Source: Octopus vulgaris
Taxonomy: Eukaryota
NCBI GenBank assembly: GCA_951406725.2
Contig: OX597815.1
Span: 209,126,001-209,190,000 of the forward strand
Direction: 5' to 3'
DNA: 64,000 nt
How positions within the stretch are numbered: the first letter of the stretch is position 1; every line of letters starts with the position of its first letter. Shown one piece after another: positions 1,262 through 59,156 of this stretch. The position numbers and the translations under genes are program-made. Below the pieces are notes generated by a model, which was given only the letters and a program-made list of their open reading frames with translations, was not told where the DNA came from and ran no database searches.

Positions 1262-1455
1262 ATGACCTCGTGTGTACCGTTGGCGATATTTTTTCCTCTG
1301 TCTTCCCTTCTCTGGATCTTTCCTTCTCCTATGTTTCCGCCGAAGAGCTCCGCTCGAAACGTTAAACCCTCCTTCTTTCCTGAGCGTCCAATGACACTAT
1401 ACTTGTTCCACGTCCTCGCGTTGTGTTTTTTTGTGCTTTCTTGTTTGGATTAACT
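1262..1455 (+). mobile_element. Penelope-like LTR remnant with a decayed hammerhead-like core
   Basis: ccgccga-a-GAGC-tcc-GCTC-GAAAC-gtt at about 1337-1363. Stem II and GAAAC are present, but the CUGANGA box is mutated. Confidence 0.4.
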
Positions 1456-2432
1456 AGTATATAACATATGCAGCATTAGTTTCTTCTAATGTCCATTTTT
1501 TTCAGGCTGGCATGGGTTAGACTGGGTATTATTTGAAGCAGGGTTTCTCAGCCATTTTTGTCAATGGACCCCTTTGATTACTATTTTATTCTGGTCGATA
1601 CTCATAGCTATTCGATGTTTAAAAATTAGTTTTATAGAAACTTCTTTCAAAATTTCTGTTTTGTTTTTCACACGTTGACTTCTGTAAGTTGAACTACGCA
1701 AAAAGTTACAGAAAGACCCCCTAGCTGTTTCTTGCAATTCCTACCAATACATACATTTGAAGTGAAAAATTTTGAGGAAAACTTATATTTACAATGTAAT
1801 ATCACGTTAAAGTTGTCCTATTTCAGTAATTTCAACCAATCAATAATCTGTATTCAGCTGGATAAAATTACTGCCATTGACTATTGTCGGTGTATTTTTT
1901 GTTTGTCACTGTTATTTATGACATCGTTCATGTGTTTGTACAGGTTTTAGCTTTAAAGTTTTAGGGTTCGGGTGTTAGGGTTACGAGGTGGTTACACTCC
2001 ACATCTTTGGTTTCTATGGAAACAGATTTCTTTACAAACAACTATAGAACACGTGGTTTCACTCCTTGGTTACTATGGAAACAGAGTTCTTTGTTTACTA
2101 TTCTAACAGAACTTAATGGTGATGTATAAAATACTTCTGATTGGCTAAAATAACCAAATTTCGCAAACTTCAAAGGCTAATAACTTTTTAATTATAAATT
2201 TATGGGGGAAAAGATTTTCATTTTCATTATTAGTATACAAAACTTAATCCATATACAAATTTGAAAACAATTGGAATAAAATTAGAGACAGTGACTCAAA
2301 CCTCAAAGATCCAAAAATTTGTCAAGGCAGTGCCCCCCCATATGCCACAGTCTCATGACTGAAGCAAGTAAAACATAAAAGATACATACACTCATACACA
2401 CACACACTCATACATACACACACATATTGTAA

Positions 2433-2940
2433 ACTAGCAGTATAACCCAGCTTTGCCTGGAATTAAGTTAGGTTTATTAAGCTAATCAAGTTCTTTATTT
2501 CAAACCGAACTAAGTAACATCAACTTCAAATTTGGGCGAAATCCATTGAAATTGGTTTATATATATATATATGGGCAACACACACACATACACACACGTA
2601 TGTACGTACACCTATTGCATACATGTTTTTTGTACACATGCATGTCCATGTGTGTTACCCGTATATCAACACAACAACAAAAGGTTTTAACAAAAACTTA
2701 CTCGTCGCTAAAAGGGGACTTAACTCCTGTTTGCAAATAATGGTGATTTCTCTGACTTGAAAATTGTTAAAAGTTTTGGTTGAAAATTTATTTTCACTGC
2801 TATTCGCTGGTGCCTCCTGTAGAAATAAGTTGACGAAAATACAGCTAGAGTCATGGCGAATGTCCTCCTAAAATTGGAGCGACATGCATGCTAATTTGTG
2901 GACGTGCATGAATTACAACCTCATACGTACACACACACAA
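2433..2940 (-). mobile_element. Non-autonomous Helitron-like fragment
   Basis: ctagcagtataacccagctttgcctgg gives a minus-strand 3' hairpin plus CTAG end, homologous to the terminus at 54340. The 5' boundary is approximate. Confidence 0.5.
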
Positions 2941-3397
2941 TCACACATTATATTGTAAATATTTTACGCACCTGTATGTGTATGTACGAAAAACATAATT
3001 CTTTGATTCTGCATTTCTGTCCCTTTTTTTTCCCCACTTGTATTGTCATCTTTTCTATATGCTGGTTCTCAAAAATTATCTGCTATTAAATCCATTAGTT
3101 TAATCCAGAAATGAACATATGCCTCCAGCACTGATAACGCCATTCCTTTTGAAAACCAATTTTTGGTTGTATCCCTTTTTAGTCACGCTGATGTGTCTCG
3201 CATTATTAACAGGCTCCTGACCATTACATGTGTGTCTTTCTCAGCAAATACTTTTTAATACCTTCGATATCCAAGAACTCTTTTTATATTTTTTTTTTTT
3301 TTACCTTTTCATCAGCCTAATGCTTTTATTAATGAAGAATAGATAGTATATGGTTGTTTCTCTCAGGCAAAACTTACACACTCACACACACACACAT

Positions 3398-3898
3398 TAT
3401 ATATATATATATATATATATATATATATATGTATGTATATATATGTATGTATATATATATTTGTATATGTATATATGTATGTATATATATATTTGTATAT
3501 GTATATATGTATGTATATATATATTTGTATATGTATATATGTATGTATATATATATTTGTATATGTATATATGTATGTATATATATATTTGTATATGTAT
3601 ATATGTATGTATATATATATTTGTATATGTATATATGTATGTATATATATATTTGTATATGTATATATGTATGTATATATATATTTGTATATATATGTAT
3701 GTATGTATATATGTATGTATGTATATATGTATGTATGTATATATATATGTATGCATATATATGTATATTATGTATATATATATATATGTATGTATATATT
3801 TGTATATATGTATATATATATTTGTATATATATATATATGTATATATATATAATGTATACATATATATATATATATATATATATATATCTTATATATA
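3398..3898. repeat. (TA)n field with a 32-bp minisatellite (about 8 copies)
   Basis: Unit atgtatgtatatatatatttgtatatgtatat; the tttg marker recurs every 32 nt from about 3460 to 3690. Confidence 0.9.
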
Positions 3899-55813: not shown

Positions 55814-57298
55814 AATCACAGCTTTAAAGGAACAAACAAACTGTTCTAAAATTCTTTTTTTCAGTCAAAAAAAAAATATATATATATATTTATATATATA
55901 TATATAAAGGAACCACTTCGAATTTAGATTTTCAGAAGTTGTTTTTTGGGTTTGTTATTTCAATTTTATTTATTTATTGAAATTCTATTTTATTCTCTTA
56001 TTGAGCTTTGCATTAATCCATTTCATGTAGTTGAAATAACTATGAACTTTATTATTATTATTATTATTATTTCTACATTTCTCTGTCTCTTGCTCTCCGT
56101 CTCTTTCTTCCTTCCCCAGTAAGATTAGAAACCACAGCCAGAAGATTGCTAACGTTGTGTTACACAACATGATATAACAATATCAAGTTATATTTTATTG
56201 TTATTTTTTTTTTACTTGGTATAGTTGTTTTGTCGTTGCCTTTTTCGCTATGTTCACCACAATTTTATCTCTTTTCTGCATCGATTTGCAGTTATGATGC
56301 TCTGCTAATGATTTTTAATGGAGTCGGTTTTTCAATTTGGATTTTATACTTATTCTTTCTTTCAAAACCCTATGCAACATTTCTAGGTTTTATTTATTAT
56401 TTATTTATTATCTAATTTATGTTTCTTTTTCTTTTTGTTTTCAAATACTTGGTCTGTGTGTGTGTATTTTCACTTCAAATTATATTCATTTTCATATTGT
56501 TGTTGTTCTTATTTTCTTTCGCTCTCTTTCTTTTTGATTCCATATTAGTTTCTTAACGTATTCTCTTAATTCAAAATTGAAGATAACAAAACTATTAATA
56601 TAGGCACAACTTTCTCTATTTCTTCAATAATCTTTGTCTCTTTTAATAATCAGGATTTGTTTACAATTTTCCAAGAAAGATATCTACCTAACCACCTTTC
56701 TCTCTCTCACTCTCTTTCATTCTCCCTTTCTCTCTCTCCTACTCGCCTTCCTCCCAACTCTTTATTTCCAAATCTATTGTTTCCTTAAGAGCTAAAAGAT
56801 TGCATGTTTTGAAAAATTATACAAATTGTAATTTTTCCTGTATTTCTTCCAGAAAATTAAGTAAAATCATAAGATCTGCTAAGATTTTCACCAATTTAAA
56901 ATGGAATATTTGCATAAGTCTGTAAACATTGTTCATCAGTTTCATGATGATGCTGATTATGATGATGATGATGTATTTATTTGCAATACTTTCATCGTAG
57001 TCTTTTTTTTTTTACCGATGCTTGCATTCGTAGCTATTTTAATGTTATTTCTACTCATTTCTAGCACTTTATCATCGTCCTGTTCTTTTTTCTTCCTTCC
57101 CCGCATTTATTCTTTTATAGCTTTTTCCTGAGATGTGGCATTAATTTTACCATTTCATCATTCCTATTTCTTATATTTACTTTCTTTTTTTTCTTTTCTT
57201 TTTTTTTTTTTAAGTAGGCACCCATTTTAATTTCTTAAATAACAATTTAATTTTCAGAGTTGTTTGAGATATATAAACTTTACATATTTTCTCCATAG

Positions 57299-57325
57299 GA
57301 GGAAGGCAAAGAAATGTACATTAGA
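57299..57325 (+). CDS. Candidate 27-nt microexon (EEGKEMYIR)
   Basis: ttttctccatag| acceptor and aga|gtaagg donor; phase 0-0 and purine-rich. Confidence 0.4.
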
Positions 57326-58358
57326 GTAAGGAAATTGTTCATTTTATCACCATCGTCGTCATCATATTATTAATTTTTAAAGAAACCATTATTATTATGA
57401 TTATGATTATTATTATTATTATCATTATTATTATTATTATTATTATTATTATCATTATTATTATTATTGTTATTACTATTTATCTGCAATAATGCCATAC
57501 ATATATTACAATTATTGTTAACCATCAGTGTTACTGTAATTTATGCTGTTGGTAAGTGGATTTGCTTTGAAAACCAGTATCTTGAGTTCAATATCTGCTG
57601 CATTTGATATTTTCTATCAGTTTTTTTTTTTTCCCTCCTTGAAACGTTTCTGGTGAAATTACAGGCAGGGCTGGGTTGTCAATGAGTTCACTTCACAAGC
57701 TTGTCGTTTTGAGGTCAGTCCTACTACAGTAGGCATCTTGGGTATTCTCTGAACTGACCAGGGCCTTGTTGATTAATTTTATAGATGAAAACTGCAGAAG
57801 TCTATTGTGTGTGTGTGTGTACATCTTTGTTTGAGTTCATCTCTCATTGCTTGACAACTGGAGTTGGTTTGTTTACATCCCCATAACTCAGCAGTTTGGC
57901 ATAAGAGAGGAAGGGGAGAGAGAGAAATAGATGGTACTGGATATGCATTAGTACCTACCCACTGGGAACAATAGAGTGGAGTGGATATAAATGGTACAGA
58001 GGGGGGATGGAGGAAGATGTTTGATGACAATGTCAGGGGGAATGTTAAGAGATGACTGTAGCAAGTGTTGGTGAGAAAAATTGGAGTAGCAAAATTGGAG
58101 TATGGTAGATATGTGAGGGCATGGAGAGTGTGTAGATAGACACATAAGGGATAGCAGAAGGGTCTGTATATATATGTATGTATGTATATAAGCATATATA
58201 TATGAGAGAGAGAGAGATTATTATTTCACTTAATCATAGTGATACTAATAACCTGGTGTTTGAACTCAGTATACATATGGTTCAGAATGAAGCATCAGTT
58301 AAGTTAAGAGCAGTAATAAAGAATTAAAATGACAAGGGAACAAGAAATTCTGTCATGA

Positions 58359-58460
58359 ACTTCATTAGCTTACAGCTGTTTCTGCTGTAAGATGCAATAC
58401 ACTCATAGTTGAGTGCTTGTGTATTACTCTATAGCTTCATCAAAGCTTCAAAAATGAAGT
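58359..58460 (-). ncRNA. Hammerhead ribozyme variant (long stem II, C3U) inside short inverted arms
   Basis: AGCU-UUGAUGA-[hairpin of about 54 nt]-GAAAC-agcu-GUA^AGCU, with stem I extended by CUUCAUU/AAUGAAG. 16-bp perfect inverted arms at 58325-58340 and 58470-58485. Confidence 0.65.
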
Positions 58461-59156
58461 GTACTTCATTTCCCTTGTCATTTTAGTTTCTTATTTATAT
58501 AATATTCATGCTAAGTGTAAAGCTCTGCACATTACCAGAATTTCTGAATCAGGATGGATAGAACAAACCACTCCAAATCTTTGTTATAGTATCAGTGTGA
58601 ATGGATTTAAGACCGGCTAACTTGTACAGTACATAGCCATATAATGTGTAAAAGTGAAGTCAAGCCAAGTAATTGTATTTTCAATACCTTTAATATGCAT
58701 GTTGTTATGCAATTTAAGTCACACTATAGCAGAAGGTATCTATCTAGCTATATATATATATATAATATATATATATATATATATATATATATACATACAT
58801 ACACACACACTCATACAATATAAAAATGATCATTTAAGAAGTAGACATTTTCAAGAATAAATTTTACTGCACCAATGATAATATTAAAAAATCACAACTC
58901 CAGGCATAAGACTATTAAAGAACTCTTCAGCCAATTGGCTGACAATTCATTTATTCAGCCAGTGTGACACTTTTGACTCTTTCAATACATATTTTGGCAC
59001 CTGTTAAAGTCTAAGAGAATCAGTAGTCACACACACACACATGCACTTATACATTATGGCTTTATCTCACCATCGTAACCAGCACTTGGCATCTCTTTGC
59101 TGATTGATATCACGTCACACAAAAGTAATAATCTTGTAGCTGTATCTAGTCAAGTA

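Follow-up and report, generated by a model that had tools for sequence, protein, structure and literature searches.

The window analysed here is a stretch of 64,000 nt from the 2.8-Gb genome of Octopus vulgaris (C2:209,126,001-209,190,000). It carries six motifs that, by sequence and predicted fold, are type I hammerhead ribozymes (HHRs) from five genome-wide repeat families related to Penelope-like elements (PLEs). All six lie in introns of DDX49. The gene came to light as DEAD-box exons when an exon finder was run over the window and 200 kb of flanks; a strict version of the finder missed these exons, and a looser one recovered them. One exon is 100% identical to an Octopus sinensis protein named DDX49. 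By tblastn, + strand DDX49 exons were placed at L211, L212 and L218, at 41115-41203 and 43020-43091 of the window, and at L221:4331. Both window exons are bounded by AG..GT, the former matching residues 375-405 of the DDX49 protein (P0001) and the latter residues 405-428 with 100% identity. The next exon, at L221:4331, is ~14 kb past the window end. Since DDX49 exons occur inside the window and beyond both its ends, the whole window falls within this + strand gene, so that every motif is intronic and + means sense. The premise of an earlier, sequence-only reading of the window (hereafter the preliminary description), that the motifs sit in introns of a host gene, therefore holds. An excess of T over A had also indicated the + strand and is superseded by the exon map. 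Pfam recognised no host gene in 8 window open reading frames (ORFs), and contigs from four runs guessed to be RNA, compared with 44-64 kb, gave no splice joints and were swamped by repeats. The final six coding exons of the helicase, one of housekeeping type, are spread over ~160 kb (L211:4447 to L221:4594), and a diverged partial duplicate of its last exon is found at L221:8452-8571.

Copies of the five families differ widely in age and completeness; core positions are given in hammerhead numbering. The D1 element at 1263-1454 (+, sense to DDX49) is ~190 nt long, non-autonomous, and flanked on both sides by TA repeats. Its minimal hammerhead, from 1337, has the family-wide change U4C and an additional A6C that also occurs in at least one other copy. 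Antisense to DDX49, the family C copy at 6646-6800 (-) is the 5'-truncated 3' end (pseudo-long terminal repeat, pLTR) of an old PLE with an endonuclease (EN+), and contains a minimal hammerhead with a canonical core from 6691 and no stem III. A + strand frame over this motif looked exon-like and is repeat family C. An old opposed pair of B-like copies occupies 35227-35362 (0.75-0.78 to the B model). Its - strand member (35227-35298) has G5A and is cut short after GAAA; its + strand member (~35296-35362) is either truncated or has an internal deletion, which is what one expects of inverted arms. At 38690-38860 (+, sense) lies a copy of the old, divergent family E (69-73% over long matches), where the hammerhead from 38741 has broken stems and a non-cleavable triplet, a degradation explained by the age of the family. 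The main family A copy (52874-53392, -) is a 5'-truncated monomer of a 352-nt retrozyme unit with a canonical core from 53332 and a palindromic stem III. It continues into an inverted 3' arm at 53393-53503 (+), with a tail ~45 nt longer than the main copy end and then TA repeats. The B copy at 58317-58469 (-, antisense) has a long stem II with one mismatch, C3U, and a palindromic stem III; a short inverted 3' arm follows at 58470-58495 (+), detected because query 6-31 also matches itself on the opposite strand.

Much of the preliminary description survives this survey. Its six hammerhead-like motifs are present, inverted repeats occur at three sites (35.2-35.4, 52.9-53.5 and 58.3-58.5 kb), and tblastn with a PLE protein found no ORF remnant in the window, in keeping with its statement that the elements lack ORFs. 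The copy at 53.3 kb, described as intact, is less so: two G-U wobbles lie at the base of its stem I, and it is broken at 52940-53170 by another dispersed, SINE-like (short interspersed nuclear element-like) repeat, with an apparent end duplication of ~18 nt. Nor is the missing stem III at 6.7 kb a sign of decay, as had been thought; a minimal HHR is the normal architecture of family C. The claim that the best-preserved copies are antisense is correct for the core, since the two copies with a fully canonical 12-position core (A and C) are both antisense and the others have 1-2 core changes. It fails for overall identity to family, which is highest in the sense D1 copy at 1.3 kb (0.96), followed by A (0.94), B at 58 kb (0.91) and C (0.85). 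That the sense copies are decayed is not confirmed, and of the first 100 copies of D1 in the genome 91 share its U4C.

A first look across the genome gave 2854 candidates for A, 1843 for B, 338 for C, 2106 for D1 and 29 for E. Two families could be tied directly to PLEs. For C, a decayed GIY-YIG-like peptide from the flank of one copy was used as query, and 25 of the 30 best loci show a C hammerhead on the same strand, in most cases 240-375 nt downstream. For the D lineage, five long-ORF loci outside the window (L290-L294) were retrieved, and every one ends in a hammerhead of this lineage and then TA repeats. They are 82-96% alike (~94-96% for L290-L292) and encode a reverse transcriptase (RT) and a GIY-YIG-like domain in frameshifted ORFs; in the two that were scanned, PF00078 scored above cut-off in both and PF01541 below cut-off (E=0.006) in one. 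We take the peptides of both lineages to be PLE RT and endonuclease remnants. An HHR-bearing repeat thus adjoins an RT and GIY-YIG ORF in the D lineage, and in C the GIY-YIG remnants are upstream. D1 itself is 72-76% alike over ~80 nt to the end repeat of the near-intact L290-L292; its 3' end is fixed, and TA repeats come after it at almost all of the 30 loci shown. The young, near-intact EN+ PLE family has at least 7,934 end copies, their hammerhead with a fixed A6U core.

The order RT (PF00078), cysteine linker (CX4CXXC), GIY-YIG-like domain in L290-L294, the end repeat on both sides of L290 and the TA-repeat flanks resemble EN+ PLEs of the Neptune/Nematis type (PMC8557442), a likeness that rests on the linker, a motif also present in Nematis, with PF01541 below cut-off and the ORFs frameshifted. 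The hammerheads are like the minimal ones described from the pLTRs of PLEs in metazoans (Cervera and De la Pena 2014, PMC4209133): type I, with an extra nucleotide between A9 and stem II and a stem III that is either missing or short and palindromic. They also come in several families per genome, for the most part as solo copies, at times as opposed pairs within ~1 kb, and few of them flank an RT-EN ORF (here L290). Opposed pairs and solo truncated copies are reported there as typical of PLE hammerheads. The octopus lineages D1 and D2 (the autonomous PLE repeat) differ in having fixed U4C and A6U, respectively; the accessible part of that paper names only a U3-A8 core variant. Penelope-like families have been listed for O. 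vulgaris (PMC13282606), in a main text that, as far as available, uses neither "hammerhead" nor "ribozyme".

Within 3-kb loci, solo copies account for 26/30 of A, 21/25 of B, 41/42 of D1 and 10/12 of E, and for B, C, D1 and E hardly any copies other than solo or opposed ones were seen. A single PLE query run by tblastn against 119 loci with 1.5-kb flanks gave no EN-like matches at 25 B or 12 E loci, and matches at inconsistent positions at 2/30 A loci. Taken together, the sequences support PLE-related hammerhead retroelements. The system is non-autonomous, as the preliminary description had it, only in part (A and D1); C consists of truncated ends of autonomous PLEs. The genome has at least six more repeat families with hammerheads (F, G, H, I, J and K), noticed at L090, L097, L105, L116, L125, L130, L157 and L225; in family J, A9C is found in 5/6 copies.

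Family A is the only one with the form of a non-LTR (long terminal repeat) retrozyme, an ORF-less tandem unit of ~170-400 nt with one type I HHR each. Its 352-nt unit occurs as monomers, a dimer and an array of 8.9 x 352 nt (98% matches, 45% GC, longest ATG frame 57 aa) at C2:14.09 Mb (L302:500-3647), where all 9 units have U4C. Helices I (6 bp) and II (4 bp) are canonical in size. In unit, GC content, helix sizes and copy arrangement it is like animal non-LTR retrozymes (Cervera and de la Pena 2020, PMC7229834; Li et al. 2026 preprint); unlike those of PMC7229834, it is known here from DNA alone, the window copy being a truncated, interrupted monomer and the array U4C. Octopus and cephalopods are not named in the accessible text of PMC7229834, nor octopus in that of bioRxiv 10.64898/2026.07.22.740005, and supplements may list more species. 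The ends of A follow the PLE insertion pattern of an inverted 5'-truncated copy, a tail of 30-40 bp and TA targets (PMC8557442). The 3' ends cluster at ruler positions ~66 and 108-111, ~45 nt apart; TA follows 28/50 ends, and an inverted arm is present on both strands in 16/30 loci. For D1 the pattern was seen in the TA flanks.

Could the motifs be chance matches to a short consensus? Some observations lean that way. With one mismatch allowed, a hammerhead descriptor found 18 matches in other genes and 4, 13 and 10 in shuffles, close to chance, and the one-mismatch matches at 48395 and 63117 were dropped as being at that level. An Rfam scan of the window had no hammerhead among the 150 rows listed of 294, only microsatellite and hairpin miRNA look-alikes. 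Minimum free energy folding of single window motifs mostly produced no hammerhead fold and is weak evidence either way. The strict descriptor, a canonical core with stems I and II paired, behaves quite differently. It found two motifs in the window (6691 and 53332, both -), none in each of 8 dinucleotide shuffles and none in the reversed window; in other genes there were 11 matches in 1,187,077 bp against 0 in each of 3 shuffles. The comparison with shuffled sequence that the preliminary description had proposed as a check therefore favours genuine motifs. Window motifs that fail the strict descriptor belong to genome-wide families, and for these families the majority sequence folds as a hammerhead. 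Such a type I fold is predicted for 10/11 family majorities, with canonical cores in A, B, C, E and generic D, where CUGANGA and GAAA boxes, an NUH site and pairing in stems I and II were all recognised, and the stem sequences differ between families yet pair. Stem III is palindromic or absent in the 10 folded majorities (a palindrome of six bases in A, B and E, and of just two in C and D); families I and J (doubtful) are not palindromic. Five seed clusters (x1-x5) unlike the hammerhead families were left out before family counts. Each motif has a fixed place in a repeat family, with the core kept, and family membership as read from these sequences refutes chance, which has almost no probability left.

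The selection proposal of the preliminary description was that intact sense hammerheads cut the pre-mRNA and are purged from introns or decay, and that antisense copies survive. Intronic copies were examined in myosin-head and ion-channel genes, with strand and span taken from exon-by-exon Pfam hits. The sample of 1,257,077 bp between exons of 24 genes was searched with 13 family profiles, keeping the best of overlapping same-strand matches of different models; the large C6 gene contributed 14 spaced stretches. Family J, doubtful because of its A9C majority, is included in the 24-gene count and left out of some tallies of a first pass over 18 genes. In the sample as a whole no strand bias among intronic hammerheads was detectable. 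As a control, four abundant repeats that we label SINE-like were counted; three split ~50:50 and one 88 to 54, so the sample is able to show a bias of that size. The skewed repeat is the family of window 11925-12155, for which the skew in introns of L090-L209 has p=0.005, uncorrected, as one of 9 repeats tried.

A few counts favour the purge: both fully canonical window motifs are antisense, the 24 genes have a slight antisense excess of 39 to 32 (p=0.48), and a single gene, myoC12, has 11 antisense and 2 sense motifs. The two window cases carry no weight on the question, the 150-kb span of myoC12 rests on two exon hits, and without that gene the count is 28 antisense to 30 sense. For intact copies, where the preliminary description had named the lack of a strand bias as refuting its proposal, canonical 10-position cores split into 11 antisense and 10 sense. 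In canonical-core families 10/17 sense and 10/22 antisense copies are intact (Fisher p=0.52), and variant-core families show the same split (8 to 7). In the first pass, with a 12-position core, intact copies were 10/26 antisense and 7/16 sense (Fisher p=0.76). Mean identity to family is 0.87 for sense and 0.80 for antisense copies (p=0.09), the wrong direction for decay of sense copies. The 57 insertions comprise 25 antisense, 19 sense and 13 both-strand, and the DDX49 introns examined hold 8 sense and 6 antisense motifs. At the present sample size the purge is largely refuted, and we regard it as very improbable. A narrower version restricts selection to tandem same-sense arrays, able to form an active dimer, in sense introns and leaves solo copies neutral. 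It agrees with the dimer requirement (PMC4209133, PMC7229834), with the reported depletion of tandem retrozymes from Xenopus introns (bioRxiv 10.64898/2026.07.22.740005) and with the presence of arrays in the octopus genome. In the genic sample no same-sense tandem pair of complete one-family motifs stands out, and the window, which is without any array, would be left unexplained. This version is unlikely, if clearly less so than the general purge.

The six motifs are most probably solo, mostly 5'-truncated ends of five Penelope-type families, likely persisting in DDX49 introns as neutral, non-cleaving leftovers on either strand. A PLE protein is reported to cut AT-rich DNA (PMC11167929). In the octopus such a protein would nick TA-rich DNA and reverse-transcribe from the 3' end of PLE or retrozyme RNA, giving truncated, inverted copies; a start of reverse transcription at two nearby internal sites (from PMC11167929) could produce the tail. 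Single minimal HHRs have been reported not to cleave, and dimers to do so weakly (PMC4209133), and the anole PLE HHR cleaves only with PLE protein, and catalytic mutants still insert (PMC11167929). For cutting, hammerheads with a palindromic stem III of 0-2 bp would accordingly depend on PLE protein or on another copy in the same sense. A single copy in the pre-mRNA would then rarely cleave, on either strand, which would leave little for selection to act on, and near-silent lone intronic copies on either strand would match the strand counts.

Several points weigh against this interpretation. Most invertebrate retrozymes are reported to cleave efficiently as monomers (PMC7229834), so family A might cleave alone, and retrozymes as such are depleted from introns according to the Xenopus preprint (bioRxiv 10.64898/2026.07.22.740005). 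The antisense share exceeds one half overall (39/71, 95% CI 0.43-0.67) and reached 26/42 (p=0.16) for non-J motifs with >=11 core positions covered in the 18-gene pass, so a weak antisense bias may exist. The test genes, whose spans come from Pfam exon hits rather than annotation, contain few copies of families A, B, C and E (3, 8, 0 and 0, respectively). One tblastn query against loci with 1.5-kb flanks revealed no autonomous partner of A, B or E. That the leftovers do not cleave is suggested by their sequences and by the cited papers.

Other features of the window include a near-perfect hairpin of ~125 nt (20699-20824) that is enclosed in a longer inverted repeat with its arms at 20574-20666 and 21007-21099 and may be a MITE (miniature inverted-repeat transposable element), and a local tandem duplication of ~230 nt, 92% alike, at 9941-10445. 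Reading-frame fragments at 39073-39765, 13225-13602, 12934-13248 and 47547-48243 are presumably of LINE (long interspersed nuclear element) type, judging by motifs and without Pfam support.

Core changes are fixed in two very abundant lineages. Exact patterns with the core left open (33 letters for D1) were searched genome-wide, and core variants were counted by eye on the first 100 rows by position; since such patterns pick out sub-families, the totals are lower bounds and should not be compared as copy numbers. D1 has at least 4,720 exact matches, the first 100 being 91 CCGACGA (U4C), 5 CCA, 2 canonical and 2 other. For D2 there are at least 7,934; of the first 100, 98 have U at position 6 and 1 has a canonical core. 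Family A, with at least 159, has ~43 U4C and ~49 canonical. Several older D-like copies (~0.7 identity) have canonical cores, and stem I of D1 and D2 differs by a compensated pair. In vitro, U4C lowers activity yet suffices for a viroid, and A6C is slow (PMC3088659); on A6U in hammerheads a literature search brought up nothing but a paper on twister. It is possible, if somewhat doubtful, that the two most amplified lineages seen here spread after independently breaking the catalytic core with the stems kept, the autonomous PLE by A6U and D1 by U4C, with a U4C sub-lineage also in A. PLE hammerheads would then be retained not as self-cleavers but as a fold serving the PLE protein, and lost catalysis may even help spread. 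The independence of the two losses is argued from parsimony only. These variants fit the published in vitro result that PLE insertion needs no cleavage (PMC11167929) and would be a modest lead.

The motifs are real and of a known kind, with new members in octopus. Hammerheads at PLE ends and in retrozymes are already known and widespread and the proposed strand purge was not seen, so that the find in itself matters little. The negative strand result is still useful, as a literature search turned up no such strand test of intronic PLE hammerheads. The core-variant lineages bear on the function of PLE hammerheads, an open question. Their young copies, in the thousands and with fixed core changes, amount to natural variants on which that function can be tested directly.

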